Below are positions 3,151 through 59,222 of a DNA stretch of 64,000 nucleotides, in pieces. The stretch comes from a virus. Both the position numbers and the translations under genes were made by a program. The stretch spans positions 32,001-96,000 of the IMG/VR virus record IMGVR_UViG_3300010938_000009. One strand, given 5' to 3'. Numbering within the stretch: position 1 is the first letter of the stretch; every line of letters starts with the position of its first letter. The notes under the pieces were generated by a model that saw only the letters and a program-made list of their open reading frames with translations, searched no databases and was not told the DNA's origin.

Positions 3151-4929
3151 TTAGGTTATTTCACATATTCCTGAAGTACAGTCTGTTTCTACAGCTTTAA
3201 TAACTTCATTATTATATTTAAGTTTAGCTTCTTCTAAAGTTAAAGCTTTTAGTGGAGGTTCGTGTACAACTCCGTTATCATCTACATAACCTCTTGTATT
3301 CTCTCTATAAAAAGTAATACCTTTAATATAAGGTAAATACTCTAACCATAGTTTAGACATATCTTCAATAGGGTAGTCTTCAGGTATATTAATAGTTTTT
3401 GATACTGCGTTATCTACGTGTTTTTGTATAATTCTTTGTACTTCTATATGGTCTTTTACACTTAAGTCTCTAGCGCCTTTAAAATGTTCTACAGATCTAT
3501 TTTGTTCTAAGAATTGTGCAAATAGAGGGTGGTAAACTAACTCCACTTTTCTAGAATCTCCATCCCAATAACGCCTTTCATAAGCAGGAGCAAACATAGG
3601 TTCGATACCACTAGAACAATTACCTGATAGAATGCTAACAGTCCCAGTGGGAGCTTGAGTAAGAATAGCACAATTTCTAATACCATGCTCAGCAATTAAA
3701 GACTTAATTTTAGAAGGCATTCGTTTAACAAATCCTGATTCAATATGTAAATCTGGTCTACAAGCAGGAAAGGCTCCTTTTTCTATAGCTAACATAATAC
3801 TAGCTTCGTAAGCTACTTTAGAAATGAATCTGTAAAGTTTATCTATAAATTTATTACCTTCTTCACTACCATATTTATAATCTAATAAAGCTAAAGTGTC
3901 AGCTAACCCTGTAGTTCCTAAACCTATTCTTCTAAGTTTGTGGGATTTCTCTTTCATTTCAGGTAAAGGATAAGAGTTAACTGTTAGTACGTTATCTAAA
4001 AAACGAACAGCACTACGAACAGTGTCTCCTAAAAGCGCATAATTAACTTCCCCTTCAGTTATAAATCTAGGTAGTACAATATGCCCTAAACAACAACAAT
4101 CAAAAGCACTAAGAGCTATTTCTCCGCAAGGATTTGTGGTAACTAGGTCTTCGATATAGTAAATATTAGACTCACTTAAAACTAATTCCCAATTTAAAAA
4201 TCCAGGTTCTGCGGAATTATAAGCATTAGTAACAATTTTATTCCATAAATCTCTAGCTTTTATAATTCTTTTATATTTACCTTTCCAAGATAATTCCCAA
4301 TCTAAATCTTTTTCTACTGCTTTAATAAATTCTTTTGTTCTTTTACTTCTCACACTAATATTAGCGTGAGTTAGTTGTCCTTTTTGTAGTTTAGCATCTA
4401 AAAATTCTTCTATGTCAGGATGATCTAAATCCAATGAAAACATTAAAGCTACTCTTCTTTGACCTCCAGCCTTTACAGGCTTGGCACAACCATCCATTAA
4501 TTTCATTAATTCAACAGGACCAGGAGCTTCACCTTTTTGTTGGTTTATTATTGCTCCTCTAGGTCTTATATCAGAAAACTCATCACCGCAGCCGCCGCCA
4601 GTCATAGAAGTTATTATCATATTTTTAGCGGAATTTCCCCAACCTTCTTTTGAATCTTTATTAGGATCTAAAACAAAACAATTTAATAACTGTGGATTAG
4701 TTCTACCTGAATTATACCAAATTCTTCCACCTGGTACAAATAAATTTTTTATTAATATATCTTTAAATTTTTCTTCGTATATCTTTTGTTTATCTGGAAT
4801 TTCAGCTATAGCCATTTGTCTAGAAACTCTAGAACAAGCTTCTGACCAAGTTTCTTCTGTTGTAAAAGCATATCTTTTTTTGAATATATCTAATGAAAGT
4901 CCTTGAGGCTCGTAAAGATTATCAGACAT
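3151..4929 (-). CDS. nrdJ: Class II (adenosylcobalamin-dependent) ribonucleotide reductase
   Basis: PGGRI..N, NCFV, TNPCGE, RRIGLG, APTGT, VDNAVSKTIN, C-terminal CTSGIC; no nrdB small subunit in the window. Confidence 0.88.
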   Translation of the reverse strand: MSDNLYEPQGLSLDIFKKRYAFTTEETWSEACSRVSRQMAIAEIPDKQKIYEEKFKDILIKNLFVPGGRIWYNSGRTNPQLLNCFVLDPNKDSKEGWGNSAKNMIITSMTGGGCGDEFSDIRPRGAIINQQKGEAPGPVELMKLMDGCAKPVKAGGQRRVALMFSLDLDHPDIEEFLDAKLQKGQLTHANISVRSKRTKEFIKAVEKDLDWELSWKGKYKRIIKARDLWNKIVTNAYNSAEPGFLNWELVLSESNIYYIEDLVTTNPCGEIALSAFDCCCLGHIVLPRFITEGEVNYALLGDTVRSAVRFLDNVLTVNSYPLPEMKEKSHKLRRIGLGTTGLADTLALLDYKYGSEEGNKFIDKLYRFISKVAYEASIMLAIEKGAFPACRPDLHIESGFVKRMPSKIKSLIAEHGIRNCAILTQAPTGTVSILSGNCSSGIEPMFAPAYERRYWDGDSRKVELVYHPLFAQFLEQNRSVEHFKGARDLSVKDHIEVQRIIQKHVDNAVSKTINIPEDYPIEDMSKLWLEYLPYIKGITFYRENTRGYVDDNGVVHEPPLKALTLEEAKLKYNNEVIKAVETDCTSGICEIT

Positions 4930-30893: not shown

Positions 30894-33290
30894 TTACTTC
30901 CTTTTCTGCACTTCTACTTTAGTTTTAGCTCCCCAATCATACTGCACTTTACAGTTAGGTAATAAAGCCCATAATACAGGGTATTTAGGTTTTTTTAGCT
31001 CATTACCTTCAAAGTTCATACCATCAGTAAAGTAAATTAAACCGTCTATTTCTAAGTCTTTACACTTATCAAATACAGGTTTAAATGCAGTACCACCTCT
31101 ACCTTTAAACTCAAACTTATGTTTAGGATCAAATTCTCCTATCCATTGAATTTTAGCATCACAAGCTATTAAAGTAATTTTAACGTCATCTCTATGTATT
31201 CTATCTACTTCCGCCATAAATTGATTTAAACACTCTGTATCAACTGAACCTGATTCGTCAATAGCTACTGCTAAGTGTAGTTTAGGATAAACTTTAGTTC
31301 CTGGAAAAATAATACCATAACGTCTATTTCTAGCTTTTCTTGAGGACTCAATAACTATTTCTGCTGTTTTAGCTACAAACCTTTGTAAGTCTTGTTTCCA
31401 GTTTTTAGGTTTATAATTAAGCCTATTAATAGCTTCAAGTATATCTCCAGGTAAATTACCTATACCGCCACTTTGTTCTACAGATTTATTAATTATAGAC
31501 TTTACCTTTTCAGTAACATATTCTTCATCGGGATTACCTTCAGCCCATAAACTATGATCATCAATTATTATAACTCCTTGTCCACCGCTTTGATTACCAT
31601 CTTTACTTTCTTCTTGCTTAAGAAATTCATAGTAATATTCCATATTTTGCCTATGTTCTATTCTAGGTATTTCTTTCTTTAAGTCTTCTACTAAACAAGG
31701 TCTACCTTCCATTGGTTTACCTGCATCTAGACTAGGATTAGGTATTTTATTACCATCTTTATCCATTATTTCAGTAGGATGACGCATTACATTACCTTCT
31801 TTATCAAACATTTGTAGTTTTTTAGGTAAATTAGGTAAATATTCATTAATAGCATAATCTGCGGCTCTGTTTAATCTATTAGCATCAAACATACTTTTAA
31901 TTTTATCAATTAAAGGTTTATCTTTTTCTAACATATTAGGTTCAAGGAAATTAAACCTGTGAAAGTGATTCATCATTACATGATAACAATTGTGTACAAG
32001 AGTTTTATTTGCAAAAAAATTATGATTATCAGCTACAGTAATATCATACAATTGTGATCTTACAAACTTTTTATTTTTTACAGAAATTATCTTTTTTGCT
32101 GAAAATTCTAAAAAGTTTGTATTAAGTTTTTTAGAATTTAATTTATTATAATATTTTTCAGAAATTTTATATTTCATGCTATTATGAATATAAGGTGCTA
32201 TTAAAGCAAATAATTTATTTGTAGCTTCTTTTTTTAATTTAATATTAAATAAATGTGGTTTTCCAGATCTTTGTTTAATTTCTGATCTTAAACCAAATTT
32301 ATTTTTTAAAGTTTTTACAATAAGTTTTTGTTCTTCCAAAGAAAAACCTTCCGTATGAAAAAAAGAAGAACCATAATTATTCCAACTTCCATCATCCATA
32401 AACCAAAAAGCTAAAGCTACAGTATCTAAATTTTTCATTAAAAACTTAATATTTTTTTTGTTTTTAATATAAACTAATTCTCTTAGTTTTTTTGTTTGCT
32501 CATTAGTGCCATGATTGATCCTTAAATTAGAGTATTCATTTTTATAATCGCTCCAACTATTTACAATTTTTCCACCTAATATAGAATGTTTATATTCTAT
32601 ATAATCTTTATGAATTTTGCTTCCAGTAGAAGAAAATTGACCTGTAGAATTAATACAAGAATCTCCCAATAAACAACCGATAATTACACTTAATTGATCT
32701 TTATTGAATAAAGGTCTTTCTTTGTTTCTTTGTCTATCTATATCTATTTTTCTAATACTATATAAATTTTTAGCTTTTTCCGCTTCAATATACTCTATTT
32801 TTGGATTAAATATATCTCTAGTTACAGCTATTTTATGATCATTCGTACAAACTACTGAAGAGTATAAATAAGGACTTTTAGCATATTTCAAACTTACCCA
32901 TCGTTTATTAGGATAATCTTTAATAGGTTTTTTAGAATAACCTATTACTGGTTTATATTCTAATTTTCCTTTTTTAGATAAAGATAGAACATTTACTTTA
33001 AGTTTATTTTCTACTATTTCTCCAATAGTAATATCTCCTTTATCTGTTTTTACTAATACGTTTTTAGCTACACATTCATGCTTTAAAACGTCTACTTGCT
33101 CTGTTAATGACATACTTTTCCAAAAGAAAGGGTTAACATACAGATTTACATTATCTGTAACATTAACTCCCAAAGTTGGTACATCAGTAGTATAAGTTCT
33201 AGTCATATTTAATATTAAATTAGCAAAAAAGGGTTCTTTTTTAATTAACTCTGTTATCGCTACTTCTATTAAATTTGCATGGTTACTCAT
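30894..33290 (-). CDS. Metallopeptidase-VWA (DUF2201-type) protein, intein-containing
   Basis: HE|CYH after splicing, N.AAD.AIN, DDH..W, VAIDESGS, GRGGT.F, YFTDG. Confidence 0.88.
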   Translation of the reverse strand: MSNHANLIEVAITELIKKEPFFANLILNMTRTYTTDVPTLGVNVTDNVNLYVNPFFWKSMSLTEQVDVLKHECVAKNVLVKTDKGDITIGEIVENKLKVNVLSLSKKGKLEYKPVIGYSKKPIKDYPNKRWVSLKYAKSPYLYSSVVCTNDHKIAVTRDIFNPKIEYIEAEKAKNLYSIRKIDIDRQRNKERPLFNKDQLSVIIGCLLGDSCINSTGQFSSTGSKIHKDYIEYKHSILGGKIVNSWSDYKNEYSNLRINHGTNEQTKKLRELVYIKNKKNIKFLMKNLDTVALAFWFMDDGSWNNYGSSFFHTEGFSLEEQKLIVKTLKNKFGLRSEIKQRSGKPHLFNIKLKKEATNKLFALIAPYIHNSMKYKISEKYYNKLNSKKLNTNFLEFSAKKIISVKNKKFVRSQLYDITVADNHNFFANKTLVHNCYHVMMNHFHRFNFLEPNMLEKDKPLIDKIKSMFDANRLNRAADYAINEYLPNLPKKLQMFDKEGNVMRHPTEIMDKDGNKIPNPSLDAGKPMEGRPCLVEDLKKEIPRIEHRQNMEYYYEFLKQEESKDGNQSGGQGVIIIDDHSLWAEGNPDEEYVTEKVKSIINKSVEQSGGIGNLPGDILEAINRLNYKPKNWKQDLQRFVAKTAEIVIESSRKARNRRYGIIFPGTKVYPKLHLAVAIDESGSVDTECLNQFMAEVDRIHRDDVKITLIACDAKIQWIGEFDPKHKFEFKGRGGTAFKPVFDKCKDLEIDGLIYFTDGMNFEGNELKKPKYPVLWALLPNCKVQYDWGAKTKVEVQKRK
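31989..33074 (-). mobile_element. Intein (362 aa) with LAGLIDADG endonuclease, inserted in the HExxH motif
   Basis: LKHE|CVAKN...CTNDHK...GCLLGDS...WFMDDG...LYDITV.DNHNFFA..TLVHN|CYH. Confidence 0.9.
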
Positions 33291-49830: not shown

Positions 49831-50073
49831 ATGGTAAATAAGAAGGTAAAATATACCTGTAAAAATTGCAATTGGCAAACTTCTATAAGAGTTGAATGGG
49901 CTGATTTACGCCCAAAAAGATGTATGAACCGTAAATGCAATATTAGTTTTCTAAAAAACCCAGACTCCTTATTAATTGAGTTACCAGAAGAAATAAAGAT
50001 AGCTCCTGAAAAGAAGACTAAAAAGTCTAAAAAACAAGAAGAGCTACAAAAAGAAGGTGAACCTAATGAGTAG
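49831..50073 (+). CDS. Zn-ribbon protein
   Basis: CKNC...PKRC...C; GAGGAG SD. Confidence 0.6.
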   Translation: MVNKKVKYTCKNCNWQTSIRVEWADLRPKRCMNRKCNISFLKNPDSLLIELPEEIKIAPEKKTKKSKKQEELQKEGEPNE

Positions 50074-50180
50074 TGGAGTTATTAATAAAGAAGAAGCTGC
50101 TAAGTTAGTGAATAATAAAATAACTAATAAATTAGTTGAAACAATTAAAACTATAGTAAATTTAGGGAATAGAAAGAAGA

Positions 50181-50777
50181 ATGCAAGACGACGAAAAAAA
50201 GCCAGAAGATAAGACTGATAGACAAATTTCTATGAAAGAGAAGGCTAAAAGAGGCGGCCAAGTTTCTGTTATTAAAATGGAAGCTAAAAGAGCTTTAAAA
50301 GAATACAGCAACCCTGATTCTAAATGGGACCTTATACAAGAGTTATACCAAGAAATACAAGCTCTTTATATTAGTGTAAATCCAGACCAACCTATGCCGA
50401 CTGTCCCAAAATTGAGACAACATTTAATAGATGAAATAAAATTAAGATATGAAGATGAACCAGAATTAAGAGATTTATTACTACAATGCCTTCCTAGCAC
50501 TGACCGATATATTAGAGCTTGGTATAAAAAAGAAGGTTGGATGGATGCAGTTTGGGATAAAGTTAGAGTTAAAGGTTTATTTACAGAAAGTAAAAGATCT
50601 CAAGTTATAGAAGCTTTAAGAAAAAGAGCTATAGAAAAAGATACTGCAGCAGCTAAAATATGGTTACAACTTTCTGGAGATTTAGTAGAAAATAACCCTA
50701 TAGCAGCTTCAGATAAAGCTCAAGATTTTTATAGAGAAATTAATAAAATTTTACATAGTAAAAAAGGTAACGAATAA
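50181..50777 (+). CDS. Putative terminase small subunit
   Basis: Immediately upstream of TerL; helical, 'AL...A.EKDT.AAKIWLQL.G'. Confidence 0.55.
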   Translation: MQDDEKKPEDKTDRQISMKEKAKRGGQVSVIKMEAKRALKEYSNPDSKWDLIQELYQEIQALYISVNPDQPMPTVPKLRQHLIDEIKLRYEDEPELRDLLLQCLPSTDRYIRAWYKKEGWMDAVWDKVRVKGLFTESKRSQVIEALRKRAIEKDTAAAKIWLQLSGDLVENNPIAASDKAQDFYREINKILHSKKGNE

Positions 50778-50780
50778 TTA

Positions 50781-52382
50781 ATGCAAGTTCAATATAATAC
50801 AGAAGGTAAACCTTTAAGAATAAATGAACTCGACATAGAAGGTTTAGCTAAATGGTTATATGAAAATAAAGTTAGAACGACTCAAGGTAAATTATATCAA
50901 CCATTACATAAGGGACATTTAGAAGTTTTAAAAGATCCAGCTAGATTCAAAGTTTTAGCTTGCGGTAGAAGATGGGGGAAAACTTTATTAACTTCTTTAA
51001 TGGCTTTAGCTGTTCTGTTTCAAATGAACAGAAGAGTTTGGATTATTGGCCCAGATTATTCTTTGTGTGAAAAGGTTTTTAGAGAACTTTATAGCATTTT
51101 AGTATTACAATTGAAGATTATAGTTCCTGGAAAAAAAGGACGTGCTCGGAACCAAAAAGGGGATTATTACTTAGAAACTCCTTGGGGAAGCATATTAGAA
51201 GCTAAATCAATGGAGAATCCTGACAGTTTAGCAGGAGAAGCGAACGACCTAATTATTATAGATGAAGCAGCTCTTACAACTAATTTAGAAAATATATGGG
51301 TGCAAATGCTAAATCCGACGTTAATGGATAAAGAAGGTTCAGCAATTTTTATTTCTACACCACGAGGTAAAAATAATTTTTATAAACTATTTTTATTTGG
51401 TGAAAAAGGTAAACGACAAAGAGAGGGTAAACTTAAAATAACCATAGATCCAGAAACAGGCATTAATAACGATATGACTGAATGGAGTAGTTTTCAGAGA
51501 ACTAGTTACGATAACCCTTTGTTAGCAGCTACGCCAGAAAAATCTAAAAGTGAAATTGATGCTGCTTATAGACGCTCTATAATGTCTGGTAAAATAGTCA
51601 TGTTTAAACAAGAATACTTAGCAGATTTTGAATCAGTTTCTGACAGTTGTTTTCCAGGTTTTAACGTAGAAGCTACTGAAAAAATACAATATCCTAATGT
51701 AATAGATTATAATTGGCACCCTGATGAAGGCCCAATTTACTCAGCTTGCGATCATAACTTTGCTAAACCAGCAAGTACTATATTCGCTCAAGTAAATCAA
51801 TTTGGAGACGTAGTAATATTTGATGAATATTTTACACCACATACAACCTCCTACATGCAAGCCCAACAAATAGTAGACAAAGAAAGAGAACTTACAAGAA
51901 GAGCTATAAAAATTTGGGACGACGAAGCACAATTATTAAAAAATAGAAGACATATAAAATTTGAAGAAATAATAGCAGATATTTCAGGAGATCAAGTACA
52001 ACTACATGGTAGAGCAGCTTGGGATGATTTTGAAGCAGTTTTAGGTAGAAGACCAAAAGGTTTAGCTCAAAATAGAGAAACAGGTTGTAATATGATAAGA
52101 CTTTGGTTACAATTTCCAAAGTTTGATCAAAAAGGACAGCCAGTATTCGACAAAAACAACGAACAAGAAACTTACCCTAAATTATTTGTTTCTAGTAATT
52201 GTACTAATTTAATTTACGCTTTAAGTACTGCTAAGTTCAAAAAAGGAAACGGCGGCAACTTAAAAGAAGATTATGAAGAAACTCCAGAAGGTTACGAAGG
52301 TTTAATTGATGCTTTACGTTATTTAATAGTATACTTATTTCACAATAAGGGTAATTACGTAGAAGTTTACAAAGGATTTTAA
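50781..52382 (+). CDS. terL: Terminase large subunit
   Basis: CGRRWGKT Walker A, IIIDEAA Walker B, ISTPRG.N.FY, F.QEYLADF, C-terminal DALRY. Confidence 0.93.
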   Translation: MQVQYNTEGKPLRINELDIEGLAKWLYENKVRTTQGKLYQPLHKGHLEVLKDPARFKVLACGRRWGKTLLTSLMALAVLFQMNRRVWIIGPDYSLCEKVFRELYSILVLQLKIIVPGKKGRARNQKGDYYLETPWGSILEAKSMENPDSLAGEANDLIIIDEAALTTNLENIWVQMLNPTLMDKEGSAIFISTPRGKNNFYKLFLFGEKGKRQREGKLKITIDPETGINNDMTEWSSFQRTSYDNPLLAATPEKSKSEIDAAYRRSIMSGKIVMFKQEYLADFESVSDSCFPGFNVEATEKIQYPNVIDYNWHPDEGPIYSACDHNFAKPASTIFAQVNQFGDVVIFDEYFTPHTTSYMQAQQIVDKERELTRRAIKIWDDEAQLLKNRRHIKFEEIIADISGDQVQLHGRAAWDDFEAVLGRRPKGLAQNRETGCNMIRLWLQFPKFDQKGQPVFDKNNEQETYPKLFVSSNCTNLIYALSTAKFKKGNGGNLKEDYEETPEGYEGLIDALRYLIVYLFHNKGNYVEVYKGF

Positions 52383-52383
52383 C

Positions 52384-53466
52384 ATGAGTATAGTAAAAAA
52401 AGAAAGTAAGAAACTAAGACAAGCTACAGCTACTGGCGACGCTATATCTACTAGTTTATTAGACGCAGTGAATACTTCAGAGATTATAACATTATCTACT
52501 GTAGCTAGTAAGATAACTTTTCAGAGTTCAGGTACACTAGCATTTGATTATACTGTATCAGCTAACGGTATTAACTTTGTTGCTGGAGCATCTGTAGCTG
52601 CAAATACACTAGCATCGTATAACACACATAACGTAATAGCAGTAACTATTACAAGAACTGCAGGAGCTGGACGAGTATCAATATTAGCAGTATCGTAAAT
52701 GAAACAAGTTATTATAAGAAAAAATAGAAGATTTATTATAAACGAGGAACAACTAAAGCCTCAAGCTAACAAACCTGACATTTGTAATGCTCTTTATGCG
52801 GCTATTTATAGAGAATTTTTAGGAGCGAGTGAAAACCCTAAATACAAAGATTTAACGCCCATAGATAGATTAAACAAATTAAATGAGTTTGCCTTAGATT
52901 GGCTTAAAAAAAGAGGGTTAGAATAATGTCAAATCACAAATTAGAGATTAAATACAAAACTTCTAATAAAAAGCAAGGACAAAATGCTGACGGAAAGCAT
53001 AAAGCTTCCGATGGTAAAAAACGAGCACCTAGACAAGAAGATAATGGTATCGGATCAGCTTATGCAATTGCTGTAGGAGAAGCTTTAAATTTAGAAAAAG
53101 GTAGCAAACAAGGTTTTCTTGGAAAAGAAAAGAAAACTATTGACCCAAAACAGTTCGCAGGTAGTACATTAAAAAAGGAGAACAAATAAAATGGCAAAAG
53201 TAAAAGCAGAACACCAATTAAAACATAAAGGCATGAAAGCTCCAAAGCCTGATAGCGCACAATTAGGAGATGTTAAAGCAGCTCCAAAACATAAACCAAA
53301 AATGAATTACAAAGAACCAGCATTTAAACTTCAATCTGACGCTCAATCAATGGCTCCAGATCATAAGAAAAAATCTATGCCGCACGATTGTGCTCCAGAA
53401 GGAGTTTCTAGTGTTAATGGTGGAAATTCCTATCCAATGGAAAAGGATCATTCTTTAAAAAAATAA
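52384..53466 (+). CDS. Four small late proteins (52384-52698 virion-like; 52699-52926; 52926-53189 and 53191-53466 Lys-rich)
   Basis: ORF track; tight coupling. Confidence 0.55.
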
Positions 53467-53534
53467 CCTCATAATAAGATACACGATGGACAGTAGAGCT
53501 GTTCGACCTGTTCCTTGAGAGGAAAGGAGGAAAA

Positions 53535-56500
53535 TTGAGTTTTAACCTAGGCGTGTCTAATCATCCAACGAGTAGATTAGGCGGATTAAGTTCTGTAGGG
53601 ATTTATCTTTACGAAGATATTTACTATAGACAGTGGATCAGTGAGATCGCCTTGGCCTTTTATGAAGGTGAATATATCGGCCTTCGCTTTAAGTAATTAA
53701 AGAGTTATGATGCGACAAGACGAATTAAGATAAGTTCGTCGGTAACGAAAGTTACAAAAATAATATAAATAACCACAAAATGTTATCTGGTTAGACTTAG
53801 AGTAAGACAGTTTCGTAATCCTGAGAAAATTTAAAAACTGTTTACTGAGTCTCTAAAATGGGGTGAATTGCTGGAAACTCCTAAAACTCACATAGCTACA
53901 AAGTAAATCGAAAGATTAAGCTTGACATGCTAGAGAATATGTGAGATACTCCTTAAAAGGTGTAATGGATAATCAGCAGCTAAGCGTAGTAGGGTTTAAG
54001 TTACTGCGAAAGTTCAACGACTAGAAGGTGAGTCCCAACAATAAGTCCTTCCTGAGAGTGCCCGATCCTGACCGAGTAAAGTCGAAGGATAAGATATAGT
54101 CTACTCCTATTTGAAAAAAGAGGTATATGATTAACGTAAAAAAATTAAAAAGTTCCGAATTAGATTCCGCCATATATGGTATGATTCTAGGTGATGGATG
54201 TATACAAATGGCTAGTTCTGGAAAAGGAAATAGCAATTTAAAAATAGGACATTCAATAAAACAAGAAGAGTATTTAAAATGGAAACAAGAGATTGTAAAT
54301 CAAATTGGAACGGTAAAAACTAGATTTTGGTATTATCAAAAACAAAACGCTTGTTATATAGAAACCAACACTAGAAACTACTTTACTAAATTAGAAAAAA
54401 TATTTTATATTAACAGAAAAAAAACTATTAATAAAAAAATATTGAATAAATTAACAGATTTATCTTTAGCTATATGGTTTTTAGATAATGGTTATATGAG
54501 TTATAATAAATCTGGTTCTGTTTACGGAGAACTCTGTACAGATCAATTTAGTTTAGAAAAAGTACAATTAATAAAAGATTGGTTTAAAATTAAATTTAAT
54601 ATGGAAGTTGGTATTAGAACTTTACGATATTTAAGCGGCAAACAAAAAGATACTATAGCTTATAGAATAAAGTTTAACAAAGAAAACTGTATTAAATTAA
54701 CAGAAATAATTAAACCTTATGTTAATCAAGTGAGTTGTATGCACTATAAATTATACGAGAATAAAATTGCTTCTCAGGCAGTAGAGAAATCTTCTGTGCA
54801 AAAATCTGTTATTGAAGCAACAGATACTACCACTTAATCTTACTAAAGAGATTATAGATGAAACCTCTATACTATATAGAGAAGATCCTATATATCAAGT
54901 AGTAGATGATAAGGGTAAGATATTAAAAAAAGATCAAGAATTATGGGAGCAAATCCAAAAGGATTCTCGCTACTTGACCTTTATGGACAAACTTGATAGA
55001 TGGGTACGACTACTAGGTACCGTACTAGTTAAAGTTTCTTTTGTAGATCCGCAGACTGGACTACTAGTAGATAAAAATAAAGAAGGTACTGTACAACTGG
55101 ATATGCTACATGGCGGCGTATACGATATAAGACATGGAGCTTCTCCCTACTATATTACAGAATTACTTATAGGTTTTGGCACTAAATTTGGAGGATTCAG
55201 AGAAAGATCTGGAACTCAAATTATAGGCGGATCACTTACAGGTAAATTACCTGATCCTAGTAGTATGGGGCAAGCCGACATAAAAACACGACAACGAATT
55301 GATTCTCCAGGACAATTAGGTTCAGTTAATAGAATTTATTGGAGTGCTCACTCACATTACGTTGAGGACGAAGATAGTAAGTATTACGAAACTAAAAATC
55401 CTTATGGAATAATTCCTGCTGTGCCGTTTTTTAATCAAGACCCAGCTCACTATTACTTTTTACCAATTAATGAACCTCTTATTTACGCTAATCATGCGAC
55501 TAATATGAGGATTACAGATTTGAATCATATTGCTAAGTTTCAATCGTTTGGAGTACCTGTAGTAAGTGGTATCGAAAGACCTACTTCACTAAGACAAGGT
55601 AGACCTGTAGACGATTTTAACGTATTAAAAGGTGGTACAGCTCAATCTAGATTTGGTGGAATTAGTGGTTTTGGAGCTAACGGACAATTTAGAACCTTTG
55701 ACCAAGGTTTAGGAGTAACAAGAGATGGAAACGCTGATGCTAATGCATTAGGTTTTTCTATTGGACCTGATACTGCTATAGCTGTTGGAGAAAAAGGGGA
55801 TTTTAGATTTGAACACCCTTCTGCAGATATTACAGGCTTAATTAAGGTTATACATAGTATAACTGATATGGTTAGAATTAACCACGGATTAAGACCTAAA
55901 TATGAAAATACATTACCTTCATCAGGTTTTGCATTATTAATGGAGAAGATTGGTGTTATAGAAAATAATATTAGAAGAGGTAAACTCTTTAAAGAAAGAG
56001 AAGAACAACTTTTCAATGTTATTAAGAATTTGTGGAATGTACATCATAATAAATCAGGAAGTAAAAGGTTTTCTGAAAAAGCTAAGTTAATTATAACTTA
56101 CGTTAATCCTAAATTTCCAGTTGACCCTAAAACTGAAAAAGAAGATATTATGATGGAAAGTAAAATAGTAGAAACTGGAGACAGAGCTGCTATTAAAAGA
56201 ATGTATCCACACATAAAAGAACCAGAAATAGATAAATTAATTATACAAGCAAGAAAAGATAAAGAAGAAAGATCCTTATTTGAAGCTGAACTTCAAGCCA
56301 AGGTTACTGAGATTATAGGACCTAAAGAAGATCCTAAAAATCCTGGAGCTAAACATAAATATTTAAGAAAATCTAAAGAAGCAGAAAGCGACAAAGAAAC
56401 TTATATTTATGAAGACGAAGACGGAAAAGAAAAAGAAGTCAAAAGATTAGATAAGAGTAAGGAAAAACTAGGTAAGCCTAAGATCGATAATAAAGCAAAA

Positions 56501-56563
56501 CACGCTGAAGAAAGTTCTAAGCAACCTGGTAAAAATGGTGATCCAAGAAGAAAAGAGGAGTAA
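53535..56563 (+). CDS. Portal protein, predicted spliced: join(53535-53669, 53713-53725, 53783-53798, 53801-53825, 54815-56563), 645 aa
   Basis: AGGAGG SD plus TTG at 53535; joined frame reads ...LAFYEG-RQDEF-IWLDL-VRQFRNPE-KQQILPLNLTKEIIDETS..., NPYGIIP, SGFAL; lies between TerL and scaffold. Confidence 0.8.
53670..53712 (+). ncRNA. Core-less group I-type mini-intron 1 (43 nt)
   Basis: P1 GAAGGU/GCCUUC ending in U.G; P10 CGA/UCG; CUUUAA-GUAA-UUAAAG hairpin; ends in G. Confidence 0.7.
53726..53782 (+). ncRNA. Core-less group I-type mini-intron 2 (57 nt)
   Basis: P1 GACGAAU/GUUCGUC ending in U.G; P10 UUAUCU/AGAUAA; GUAAC-GAAA-GUUAC hairpin; ends in G. Confidence 0.75.
53826..54814 (+). mobile_element. 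Group I intron (IA-like core) carrying a LAGLIDADG ORF
   Basis: P AAUUGCUGGAAA 53866-77, Q AAUCAGCAGC 53971-80, R GUUCAACGACUA 54012-23, S AAGAUAUAGUC 54091-101; P7 GACUA/UAGUC; exact ends inferred. Confidence 0.88.
54127..54837 (+). CDS. Intron-encoded LAGLIDADG homing endonuclease or maturase
   Basis: IYGMILGDG, HS.KQ.EYL.WK, LAIWFLDNG, CTD.FS, M.YK. Confidence 0.88.
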   Translation: MINVKKLKSSELDSAIYGMILGDGCIQMASSGKGNSNLKIGHSIKQEEYLKWKQEIVNQIGTVKTRFWYYQKQNACYIETNTRNYFTKLEKIFYINRKKTINKKILNKLTDLSLAIWFLDNGYMSYNKSGSVYGELCTDQFSLEKVQLIKDWFKIKFNMEVGIRTLRYLSGKQKDTIAYRIKFNKENCIKLTEIIKPYVNQVSCMHYKLYENKIASQAVEKSSVQKSVIEATDTTT

Positions 56564-56565
56564 AT

Positions 56566-56913
56566 ATGGTAAAACCAGAATCTCAAAAAATATATGAATT
56601 AACCTTATTCAGAAGAGATGGTGGTCATATTAACGTAACTCAAAGTAACAACTTTGAGGAAGTAAGTTCTTTATGGACAGAATTAACAGAAAGGTGGGCT
56701 ATTGCAATAAAAGAGCAAAAGCCGTTTATTCTAAATAAACCTGTAGTCACAAGTTTTGACCCAGGTTTAATTTATGAAATAACGGTTAGACCCCTTGTAG
56801 AGACAAGCAGGGCTAATCTTAACAATCCCTATTATCAAGATATGTTAGATAAAGGTTTAGGTAACACTTTACAAAAAACTAACGGTCTTATAGATGGTGG
56901 ATATAAGTACTAG
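56566..56913 (+). CDS. Hypothetical protein
   Basis: ORF track; GAGGAG SD. Confidence 0.6.
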   Translation: MVKPESQKIYELTLFRRDGGHINVTQSNNFEEVSSLWTELTERWAIAIKEQKPFILNKPVVTSFDPGLIYEITVRPLVETSRANLNNPYYQDMLDKGLGNTLQKTNGLIDGGYKY

Positions 56914-56956
56914 ATTAAACCCTTTATAACTAGTAGAGCTAGTTGGAGGAAATTTT

Positions 56957-57883
56957 ATGGGATTAAGAAATTCCAATAGTAATGATTTGATAGGTAAACT
57001 TGGAGCTATGAAAGCTTCAAACAGTAACGGAGTTTCAACAGAAGCTTCTGTTAATACAGACGCAAGCCAGACTGATAAAGCTGGTAATAAGTCAACTTCT
57101 GCTGCCACAGGAGAGACAAATAGTGTTGAGACTAAAGGAACAGTTTCTAGTGAGAAAGAGTCTTCAGAAAATAGTTCCGTAGTTAAAGATCCTGATAGCT
57201 GGTCGAAAGAAAGTGCTCTTCTTGAAGTTAAAAAACTTCGAGAAGAAAACAAAGCTACTAGGCTCAAATACGAGGAATCTTTAGAACAACTCAAAGCTGA
57301 TATGGAAGCCCGTATCAAAGCTAGAGAAGAAAAAGAGCGTGAATTAGTTGAGTATAAAAAGCAATTAGAGGAAATCAAAACTAAAGAAGAGGACAAGAAG
57401 CGAGATTTAACTGAAAAGTTATCGCATCGGGAAGCTCTTTTAGCTGAGATGAAAATCAAACAAGAAGCTTTAGAGAAAGCTTTTCAAAGCCAATTGCAAG
57501 AGAAAGAAATGATTCTTAAAAAGTACGAAGCTGAAATTTCTGCTCAAACTGAAGTATATAAACAAAGACTAGATTCAGAATTAAACGGGATACCCGAAAA
57601 ATACAAAGAAATAGCTAGTCTTATTGTTAAAGGCGCTGGAGATCCAAGAGATGCTCTAGTAGCTCTAAGCGAAGCAAAAATCAAAGGCGTTTTTGAGGAC
57701 AAAACAGTGGTTGTAAATCACTCTGTTCCAGGAGCTAATGATGGCGCTAGAGTTACACAAGATAAATTAAATGCTGTCGAAAGAGAACGAAGAGAAAAAA
57801 TGAACTCAAGTAGTCTTATCGGAGAAGCATTGAAAAGCATTAGAAGTGGTAATCCAAACTCAGCCTTTAGATCAAACAAATAA
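56957..57883 (+). CDS. Capsid scaffolding protein
   Basis: Low-complexity N-terminus, KKLREENKA.R coiled coil, directly upstream of the capsid gene. Confidence 0.75.
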   Translation: MGLRNSNSNDLIGKLGAMKASNSNGVSTEASVNTDASQTDKAGNKSTSAATGETNSVETKGTVSSEKESSENSSVVKDPDSWSKESALLEVKKLREENKATRLKYEESLEQLKADMEARIKAREEKERELVEYKKQLEEIKTKEEDKKRDLTEKLSHREALLAEMKIKQEALEKAFQSQLQEKEMILKKYEAEISAQTEVYKQRLDSELNGIPEKYKEIASLIVKGAGDPRDALVALSEAKIKGVFEDKTVVVNHSVPGANDGARVTQDKLNAVERERREKMNSSSLIGEALKSIRSGNPNSAFRSNK

Positions 57884-57899
57884 AAGGAGTTAACATACA

Positions 57900-59222
57900 A
57901 TGGCTCAAGTAATTTCATTATCCGATGCAGCGAAACTTTCTAACAACATGCTTGTTGAAGGTATTATCGCAGACATCATTTCAATAGATGATTGGTTCAA
58001 ATACCTTCCTTTCGTAGTTTTCGAGGGGTTGGCTTACACGTTCACTAGAGAGGCTACTCTTGCTGCGGCAGATTTCGCTTCCCCAGGAACTAACTTAAAT
58101 CAATCAAAATACCAAGCTGGAGCTTCTTTCCAGAATGTAAACGTAAATTTATCTGCTATCATTGCAGATATTATCATCGACGGTCAAATTGAAGATCAAT
58201 TCAGCGAGACTAACGATCAATTACAAGTTCAAATTAGCTCAAAAGCTAAACAACTTGCACGTATTTACATGAATGCTATCATCAATGCTAAAAGATCTGC
58301 TTCTCTTACTCAGAGTAACAATGGTCCTATAGGTATTGCTGACAGATTTCACGGAATGGCTTCTATTTTAGATGCTGAATCAGGAAATGTTGATGATGTA
58401 AATCATCCATTTTACAATGCTGGTAATCCTACTCAAACAGAAGTACTAGTTGAAGACGACCCTTCTTCTCCTCGAAACGGGAAGAATGGTAGAGTTTTTA
58501 CTCTAGAAGATCTGGATGCTCTAATCGATAGAGTAACTGTAGGTCGTCCTGATTTTATCATGATGCATTCACGAGATATCCGAACACTAAGAGTTTTGAT
58601 GAGAAACACTGGTGGCGGTACAGATGCATACATGCTACAACAACAAGGTCTTGGTAACATGAAGCCTATGCTTTATTATCAAGATATTCCAGTTTTCAGA
58701 AATGATTTCATTTCTAAATCTGATCCAGTAAACAGTACTGTACATACTATCTCTTCTGTTACAGATGCTAATACTATCGTACTAAGTTCTGCTACTGCTG
58801 CTGATGCAGAACACCTTCTTCTTAGAGGGTCTGATGGCGTTAATTATAGATATGCTATTGCTTCAGGTGCCGGAACTGCTACTATTGACGTAGCTTCTGT
58901 TTCTGGTTCTTTCTTTGATCCGGAGCAAAATAAACAAGTAGCTCGACAAGCTCTTAACACTGCAGGATTATTTCTTGCTGGCGCTCAAGCTATCTCTGCT
59001 GAAAGAATTGATGGATCTTCCATCTATTGTGGATGTTGGGGAGAGTTTAAAGGGGTTGTAGGTTTTACTTCTGCTAACAACGCAGGATTGAAACTTGAGT
59101 ACGTAGGTCCTCGTGAGAACGAAAACGCTTACCAATATCGTATGAAATGGTATTGTGGATTTGACTTATACAATCGTTTAGCTTTAGCGAGAATTAAAGA
59201 AGCATTACCACTTGGTGCGTAA
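57900..59222 (+). CDS. Major capsid protein (HK97-like)
   Basis: LSDAAKL...L..GII, LPF...EG.AY...RE.TL, F.G, LEDLD.LID.V...PD, YRMKWYCG; AAGGAG SD; downstream terminator. Confidence 0.85.
   Translation: MAQVISLSDAAKLSNNMLVEGIIADIISIDDWFKYLPFVVFEGLAYTFTREATLAAADFASPGTNLNQSKYQAGASFQNVNVNLSAIIADIIIDGQIEDQFSETNDQLQVQISSKAKQLARIYMNAIINAKRSASLTQSNNGPIGIADRFHGMASILDAESGNVDDVNHPFYNAGNPTQTEVLVEDDPSSPRNGKNGRVFTLEDLDALIDRVTVGRPDFIMMHSRDIRTLRVLMRNTGGGTDAYMLQQQGLGNMKPMLYYQDIPVFRNDFISKSDPVNSTVHTISSVTDANTIVLSSATAADAEHLLLRGSDGVNYRYAIASGAGTATIDVASVSGSFFDPEQNKQVARQALNTAGLFLAGAQAISAERIDGSSIYCGCWGEFKGVVGFTSANNAGLKLEYVGPRENENAYQYRMKWYCGFDLYNRLALARIKEALPLGA

Follow-up and report, generated by a model that had tools for sequence, protein, structure and literature searches.

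Group I introns use a U·G pair at the splice site. Among those of phages, Twort orf142 has several introns crowded in one gene, and the T4 sunY intron carries an open reading frame (ORF) 3′ of the core and has a remote 3′ splice site. The internal guide sequence (IGS) of group I introns has been described near the 5′ end (PMC3984707), and no natural exception to this placement was found in the literature searched. Here we describe a predicted 989-nt group I intron in the portal gene of a phage, located in a 64,000-nt stretch of DNA (positions 32,001 to 96,000 of the IMG/VR record IMGVR_UViG_3300010938_000009) that we call the window and whose positions are used throughout. We think it probable that the functional guide of this intron is the segment 54767-54778, placed in the 3′ tail of the intron and not at its 5′ end.

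The intron is similar in many respects to the phage IA2-type introns (Twort orf142 and nrdE; T4 td, nrdB and sunY/nrdD). Like them it has a P/Q/R/S core, an intron ORF, a terminal G, a P10 pairing and, shortly past the 5′ splice site, an in-frame stop, and it shows Twort-like similarity by blastn. Where those introns use the U·G pair, the nucleotide at −1 in the window is G. Their IGS is found just inside the 5′ end (PMC3984707), whereas the guide in the window comes after the ORF at the 3′ end and a 5′ P2 is absent.

The portal gene in five pieces and the 3′-placed guide

The bulk of the portal gene is found as a 583-aa ORF from 54812, in a 104,283-bp phage record bearing direct terminal repeats. 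This ORF has more than 300 homologues, mostly of 600-650 aa among the 120 listed, and some of them contain the SPP1-type portal domain PF05133; the 583-aa fragment itself gave no match in Pfam or PHROGs, and tblastn of the phage collection with the portal protein gave none either. The ~100 uninterrupted homologues start MSFNLG...ALAFYEG-RQDE-F[IV]WLD-LVRQFRNPE-KQQILPLN, with the residues ...LVRQFRNPEKQQILP at the position of the exon 4/exon 5 join. An earlier reading of the DNA made from the letters alone (the sequence-only reading) had proposed PEKQQ in homologues as a check on this join, and they all read ...RNPEKQQ. We observe that the window codes for exactly these homologue residues, in the same order, in five pieces separated by gaps of 43 nt, 57 nt, 2 nt (AG) and 989 nt. 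The three micro-exons encode 18 residues that are near-invariant across the homologues and intact in the window, and the full-length protein would have ~645 aa. Judged on this homology and on a public contig that has exons 1 to 4 joined at the predicted points (run X2, below), the wider five-exon model holds up. Skipping of the micro-exons by joining 53669 to 54815 was considered unlikely, as the 18 nearly invariant residues would be lost. Translational bypassing or frameshifting across the small inserts was rejected, as take-off and landing codons differ, a slippery site is absent, and each insert shows P1, P10 and terminal-G features.

The segment 54767-54778 reads TTGCTTCTCAGG, and its reverse complement, CCTGAGAAGCAA, equals 53820-53825 joined to 54815-54820. 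The exact 12-nt complement of CCUGAG/AAGCAA that the sequence-only reading had pointed out is therefore present for the join defined by homology, and the GAAA-capped hairpin that it placed after the guide is there as well. The part of the guide that pairs with AAGCAA is contiguous with the part that pairs with the end of exon 4, as expected for P10 and P1 of a group I intron, and the guide lies ~940 nt past the 5′ splice site and 36 nt ahead of the 3′ splice site (Table 1). Within the intron, the complement of CCUGAG plus AAGCAA is found only here. In the 64-kb window the complement to the fixed junction has a single match with 1 mismatch allowed, where 0.15 are expected on both strands, and shuffling the intron 300 times never produced a 12-nt complement. 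By these sequence statistics, the complementarity is unlikely to be due to chance.

The exact position of the 5′ splice site (53825/53826) can be shifted, as the G and AA shared by both ends allow four equivalent cuts, from 53824/54814 to 53827/54817; the ambiguity attributed to a shared GAA by the sequence-only reading is real. None of the four junction options gives a U at −1, and G53825 pairs with C54773 in place of a U·G. We also note that CCUGAG recurs in the core at 54051-54056 and CUGAG in the 3′ strand of an exon-intron helix (helix H, below) at 53845-53849, so that alternative folds are conceivable in which the CUCAGG of the guide pairs with one of these; a relative of the intron, L043, does not conserve this.

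Table 1. Features of the split portal gene, its inserts and its surroundings (window positions)
Feature	Position	Strand	Remarks
Exon 1	53535-53669	+	
Core-less mini-intron 1, 43 nt	53670-53712	+	Predicted guide UCGGCCUUC at 53677-85; GUAA hairpin 53687-702; ends in G
Exon 2 (13 nt)	53713-53725	+	
Core-less mini-intron 2, 57 nt	53726-53782	+	Predicted guide AGAUAAGUUCGUC at 53728-40; GAAA hairpin 53742-55; ends in G
Exon 3	53783-53798	+	
Helix H	53793-53852	+	Exon 53793-98 and 53801-13 pair with canonical-position guide 53835-52; from fold results; Rfam P1 aligns here
AG insert, 2 nt	53799-53800	+	Between P1 (AGACUU/GAGUCU, with U·G) and P10 of the 5′-proximal guide
Exon 4	53801-53825	+	
Last 6 nt of exon 4 (CCUGAG)	53820-53825	+	Predicted P1 substrate strand with the 3′-placed guide; homologues RNPE/KQQ
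Group I intron, 989 nt	53826-54814	+	Boundaries by protein homology; RF00028 match inside; terminal G54814
Catalytic core P3-P9, no P2	53860-54123	+	RF00028; P 53863-77, Q 53971-80, R 54012-25, S 54091-104
P9 with GAAA loop	54106-54123	+	
LAGLIDADG homing endonuclease ORF	54127-54837	+	Pfam PF03161, 8e-34, residues 15-188; PHROG 11023
3′-placed internal guide	54767-54778	+	UUGCUU (54767-72) with exon 5, predicted P10; CUCAGG (54773-78) with exon 4, predicted P1
GAAA-capped hairpin adjoining guide, P2-like	54779-54796	+	CAGUAGA-GAAA-UCUUCUG, one U·U mismatch
18-nt tail	54797-54814	+	Terminal G54814; AUCUGUU (54804-10) can pair with exon 5 AACAGAU (54819-25)
Exon 5	54815 onward	+	Start at 54815-54825: AAGCAA with guide, predicted P10; nt +5 to +11 pair with tail
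Large terminase gene	50781-52382		Small ORFs and the 583-aa ORF also lie around the intron

Co-variation of the guide in related portal introns

Using 62 IMG/VR loci of related portal genes, with insertion sites identified by tblastn, we find that the first ~65 codons of the portal gene draw introns at several sites. At least five insertion points are seen among portal loci L008-L069 (after residue ~23, after 45, at ~50, at 54/55 and at 62-64). Site A (FYEG/RQDE) has full introns in L014, L015, L026 and L036, and site B has a canonical 300-nt intron without an ORF in L035 (RF00028, 106 bits). Site D, around NPE/KQQ, has ~980-nt introns bearing a LAGLIDADG gene in L033, L043, L044/L045 and L049. 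The site-D set used here comprises five full introns (window, L033, L043, L044 and L049) together with the 3′ half of another site-D intron in L039, whose contig begins inside the intron. The homologous site-D introns occupy three positions within 5 nt (NP/E, NPE/K and a split within NPEK), an instance of intron 'sliding'.

The site-D relatives have, just after the endonuclease stop codon, a guide matched to their own exons. CCAGAG/AAGCA is paired with UGCUUCUCUGG in L043, and CCAGAA/AAAC with GUUUCUCUGG in L044, with A·C at −1. In L033, UGAGAA/AC plus AGCAGAUU is paired with AAUCUGCU-AA-GUUUCUCA, and in L049, AACCCU/GAAAAACAAC is paired with GUUGUUUUUUGGGGUU, with U·G at −1. The 3′ half in L039 has GAGAAACAG with UUGUUUCUU. 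Synonymous differences between the exons (CCU/CCA, GAG/GAA, AAG/AAA) are compensated in the guide, and assigning each guide to its own junction gives the best mean duplex energy among all 120 permutations. The layout around the guide is also conserved in all five full introns: P1 is 6 bp, a spacer of 0-1 nt is followed by a GNRA hairpin of 6-7 bp with a co-varying stem, and 10-32 nt after the hairpin comes a G that coincides exactly with the 3′ splice site defined by homology. Further pairing takes up the first 10-14 nt of the 3′ exon, either with the tail (window, L043 and L044) or with sequence 5′ of the guide (L033 and L049); the tail/exon stem of L043 and L044 is the same as that of the window or co-varies with it. 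A GAAA hairpin 5′ of the guide and an AAAA-loop hairpin 3′ of it were observed in L039 (~880-970), which has a different endonuclease.

The nucleotide at −1 across the five introns is G, G, A, A or U, and the usual U·G is missing in four, which have G-C, A·C or A-U instead. That the upstream exon ends in G with no U·G, as the sequence-only reading had said, is thus borne out in the window (G53825) and is part of a wider pattern: by this comparison the non-canonical 5′ splice site is real across the site-D lineage. Taken together, the sequence comparisons support the view that the 3′ element behaves like a true guide to the join of exons 4 and 5, conserved in place and co-varying with its target. 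Chance complementarity could be suspected in such AT-rich sequence (30% GC), and an unconstrained scan did give spurious matches of similar length. However, the target and position were fixed here, and the match recurs with different sequences in four to five relatives, making chance scarcely credible as an explanation.

Wider searches define how far the set extends. Core-pattern scans of IMG/VR identified L039 as holding the site-D 3′ half and yielded over 240 loci from the wider family of introns with no new portal site-D intron, and endonuclease-based scans of IMG/VR returned known relatives only. Among metagenome contigs, the endonuclease scans found L073, which is the L043 contig, and distant LAGLIDADG genes at ~30% identity. 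A P7-P9 pattern with 131 matches over the fetched loci showed an ORF directly after P9 in portal site-D introns only. A generic scan of the family loci for the 3′-guide module found portal introns only, plus spurious 12-nt matches, and is uninformative on how frequent the layout is. About 15 portal homologues are N-terminally truncated (e.g. P0066, P0094 and P0106), and these probably hold more site-D introns.

The group I core, helix H and the choice of cut

The core of the intron matches RF00028 at 53805-54123 with 57.7 bits (gathering score 50; E 2.9e-14) when searched as a 361-nt slice. P3, P4, P6 and P9 were recovered by RNAalifold from 38 family members, the nearest database DNA by blastn is that of Twort-like Staphylococcus phages, and G54814 takes the place of the terminal G (omega G). 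On the strength of these sequence features, the intron core is a genuine group I ribozyme. It is the one core of its type found in the 104-kb genome. An Rfam search of 50000-58000 (8 kb, E up to 1) gave no match; given the above-threshold match of the slice, this is attributed to the speed filters of the search, and a blank Rfam result on a long stretch should not count as absence. The terminal hairpin of the intron was considered as P9 and rejected, since the GAAA-looped P9 is a distinct element immediately following P7.

The canonical site-B intron in L035 shows how the parts may have been rearranged. Its core sequence is almost that of the window intron, its P9 also carries a GAAA loop, and its P1 of 6-7 bp is followed directly by a GAAA hairpin. 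At its 5′ end the guide GAAUUCC pairs with exon GGAAUU, giving U·G at the splice site, and then comes the P2 with its GAAA loop. It differs in having guide and P2 at the 5′ end and in ending 6 nt past P9; the end point of L035 corresponds to the ORF start in the window, where guide, hairpin and terminal G follow the ORF. The endonuclease ORF begins right after P9, three nt beyond the end of the Rfam model. When L035 (~3843-3866) is aligned here, the last letter of the ATG of the ORF (…UAUAUG) falls on the terminal G of that intron (…UAUAAG/exon), an indication that ORF and 3′ guide module were added where the 3′ splice site used to be. The Shine-Dalgarno sequence of the ORF is supplied by the 3′ strand of P9 (54106-54129).

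The LAGLIDADG genes of the site-D relatives are 62-74% identical to that of the window. Motif 1 (GDG) is intact, and motif 2 reads LDNG in the window vs DDG in four relatives, so an acidic residue does not precede Gly in both LAGLIDADG motifs. In the four full-intron relatives the ORF stops just ahead of the guide; only that of the window, having lost its stop codon, continues past the guide, the hairpin and the 3′ splice site and ends within exon 5 at 54837. The sequence-only reading, which had the guide inside the endonuclease ORF, was correct for the window but does not carry over to these relatives, and the overlap is incidental. With LDNG in motif 2 and the stop lost, the ORF of the window looks to be decaying.

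A second guide is found at the canonical 5′ position and forms helix H with the exons. Positions 53801-13 pair with 53835-46, and the helix is extended by 53793-98 pairing with 53847-52; the AG insert sits between the two halves and the 5′ splice site in a 21-nt loop. The exon strand covers positions −32 to −13, not the splice site, and corresponds to the codons for LVRQF. In L043 the counterpart is GUUCGUCAAU with AUUGACGAAC, and in L049 it is CUUGUAC with GUACAAG plus CAGUUU with AAAGCUG, such that three introns have different helix H sequences over the same LVRQF codons. L044 and L033 have weaker exon-intron helices in other registers. P2 is absent from the 5′ end in site-D introns. In the modelled fold, the 5′-position guide no longer specifies 53825/53826 and pairs instead with the LVRQF codons.

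We favor the reading in which the IGS-P2 module has been relocated behind the ORF. CUCAGG would form P1 with the last 6 nt of exon 4 and UUGCUU would form P10 with the first 6 nt of exon 5, with the GNRA hairpin as the counterpart of P2. The core and endonuclease gene would then lie topologically inside the 'P1 loop', and helix H would probably tether the 5′ exon near P3, in the window also framing the AG insert. Splicing could proceed by the ordinary two transesterifications, guanosine-initiated, in a single core. This is the simplest course because L049 has a clean U·G and a terminal G; its U·G at −1 in the 3′-guide P1 means that a guide in the 3′ tail need not depart from textbook chemistry. 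The position of the cut would depend on the 6-bp distance from the hairpin and not on the U·G wobble, as the constancy of this distance suggests.

The pairing could instead be real but accessory, with the 5′ cleavage site chosen in another way, for example by a maturase-like LAGLIDADG protein or by helix H. It might then act as a second-step clamp that aligns the exons, as a timing device until the whole intron is transcribed, or as a switch between endonuclease translation and splicing. The absence of U·G at −1 in four of five introns would fit such a role. So would the asparagine in place of the acidic residue in motif 2 of the window, a change seen in maturase-type LAGLIDADG proteins, and the stop codon (in the window, the ORF itself) that abuts or covers the guide, setting ribosomes and guide pairing in competition. 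The T4 sunY/nrdD intron provides a precedent in that it is activated by its remote 3′ end. However, the guide is ordered and contiguous exactly as an IGS would be, P10 complement then P1 complement, and its constant 6-bp P1 stands beside a hairpin as in canonical L035; we therefore regard the accessory roles, taken jointly, as unlikely.

A number of points weigh against placing the functional guide in the 3′ tail. The sample is small at five full site-D sequences, and there are few independent co-variation events because the window and L043 share most of the guide. L044 has its A·C mismatch at the cleavage position itself, and L033 has 2 contiguous P10 pairs and then a bulge. The guide statistics are strong only because target junction and position are fixed; the unconstrained wide scan for split guides gave spurious matches of 12 nt. 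That helix H and the loop-guide pairing coexist in three dimensions is a modelling assumption, and no contig bridging 53825 to 54815 was found in the public run data described below. The −1 nucleotide is G or A in four of the five introns, away from the U·G norm. Set beside a guide that is not 5′-proximal as described (PMC3984707), this leaves efficient self-splicing unproven, and a protein may be needed.

Core-less inserts, public reads and comparison with known systems

The two mini-introns share a cassette with the 3′ module of the large intron, consisting of a contiguous P10/P1 guide, a GNRA hairpin and a tail ending in G, and their guides have U·G at the cut. The fold z-score of mini-intron 2 is −3.5. 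Mini-intron 1 shares homology with the 5′ ends of full introns at site A (L014, L026 and L036). A 35-nt core-less insert with the same homology was observed at site A in L049 (3487-3521), and the guide of the mini-insert co-varies with the exon (GAA GGU CGA vs GAG GGU CGC in window and L049). Both of these genomes also have a full site-D intron.

Each of three public sequencing runs contains only a small share of the stretch, and the run search listed no RNA run containing it. A contig from a rhizosphere run (X1; DNA by the guess of the tool) is collinear with the window from mini-intron 2 through AG and exon 4 into the large intron, showing that the interruptions are not an assembly artefact. 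A wastewater run (X2) has a library labelled METAGENOMIC RNA-Seq cDNA, although the tool marks it 'RNA? probably DNA'. Its 257-nt contig (depth 8.9) consists of 53492-53669, the 13 nt of exon 2, and 53783-53848 minus 2 nt at 53799. It skips 53670-53712 and 53726-53782 and joins exons 1-2-3-4 at the predicted points with 23 nt of the large intron retained, and it has three differences from the window, two of them common to X1. X2 contains ~6% of the sampled words of a 1.6-kb stretch, which would be odd for even DNA coverage of a near-identical phage, and we lean towards the contig being cDNA of a partly spliced transcript; a DNA variant without the three small inserts is less favored. The pattern of joined exons 1-2-3 as DNA has no match in IMG/VR. 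The contig may be the first read-level support for removal of the core-less mini-introns.

One core probably serves several guide cassettes at this locus. In a fuller reading, it would serve four, namely the three core-less inserts (43 nt, 57 nt and the 2-nt AG) and the 3′-displaced guide of the large intron, and the contig of the RNA-Seq-labelled run would be cDNA of a natural intermediate; we put the chances of this combined proposal a little short of even. A GNRA hairpin, tail and terminal G would be present in three of the four cassettes (the two mini-introns and the large intron). If so, guide cassettes would be portable modules separable from group I cores, and the locus would represent a natural version of excision-splicing and an advance towards a shared splicing machine.

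The sequence-only reading had suggested possible G-site exchange or recombination-like transesterifications, in which the 5′ exon bound in the canonical P1, with U53798 at its end, would be a transient carrier, a scheme that we find nothing to support and consider very improbable. The canonical-position guide does form a P1 with U·G at U53798, and exon 4 ends in G, which could in principle fill the G-binding site. However, the relatives that lack the AG insert have no cleavable U·G in helix H and keep the same 3′ guide. The exon ends in A in L044 and L033, and L049 is fully canonical at its 3′ guide, where the U·G and regular geometry fit two-step splicing. The X2 contig, in which AG is lost with the large intron in place, fits independent events better than a carrier pathway that couples them.

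Alternatively, the portal may not be repaired by splicing at this site at all, the record being that of a defective phage or the portal being made in separate pieces, with the complementarity as a relic. Four interruptions including a 2-nt frameshift, a CheckV completeness of 56%, and the exon 4/exon 5 RNA joint not being seen in contigs are in keeping with this. Against it, the record has direct terminal repeats, the independent X1 assembly has the same interruptions, the invariant micro-exon residues are intact, and no ribosome-binding site is found before 54812. The co-variation of the guide in relatives with otherwise intact genes further indicates selection on RNA pairing, and we hold this alternative to be quite improbable.

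If the guide acts from the 3′ tail, the substrate-binding module of a group I intron would be detachable from its core in nature and not only in the test tube, which would explain how core-less neighboring inserts persist in an essential gene. The locus would also offer a tractable ~1.4-kb transcript for asking how a core picks among guide helices, a choice that bears on the evolution of shared, trans-acting splicing machinery. Annotation tools, like engineered ribozymes, assume a 5′ guide and a U·G pair, and such introns and split genes are mis-annotated; the portal here was called as a 583-aa fragment.

Separation of guide and core has laboratory precedents. Doudna and Szostak reportedly worked with template-directed sunY and Tetrahymena cores in which the guide was separated from the core. 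An Azoarcus ribozyme from which the IGS has been removed still works if it is given the IGS in trans (PMC2709566). In these engineered ribozymes, as in the window, the core acts on a P1/P10 helix with the guide strand off its normal covalent position; they are laboratory constructs, whereas the arrangement proposed here would be a natural one, working in cis, that a phage lineage has conserved. For the AG insert and mini-introns, trans-excision-splicing is a close analogue, in which a group I core removes an internal segment down to 1 nt between P1/P10-type pairings (PMC2532722), but those ribozymes are engineered, act in trans and use their own terminal G as nucleophile. The 43-nt and 57-nt inserts also resemble the 'degenerate' group I introns of fungal rDNA, which are 56-81 nt long with P1, P10 and a terminal G but no full core (PMC3160393); these differ in being nuclear rDNA introns reported to splice alone with no neighboring full ribozyme. 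IStrons share the 5′-side group I core, long cargo and remote 3′ splice site, but their cargo is an IS element and their IGS is still at the 5′ end (PMC4227781). Altogether, we would class the intron as an architecturally new variant within group I, set apart from the IA2-type introns by the position of its IGS-P2 module and by its splice-site pair.

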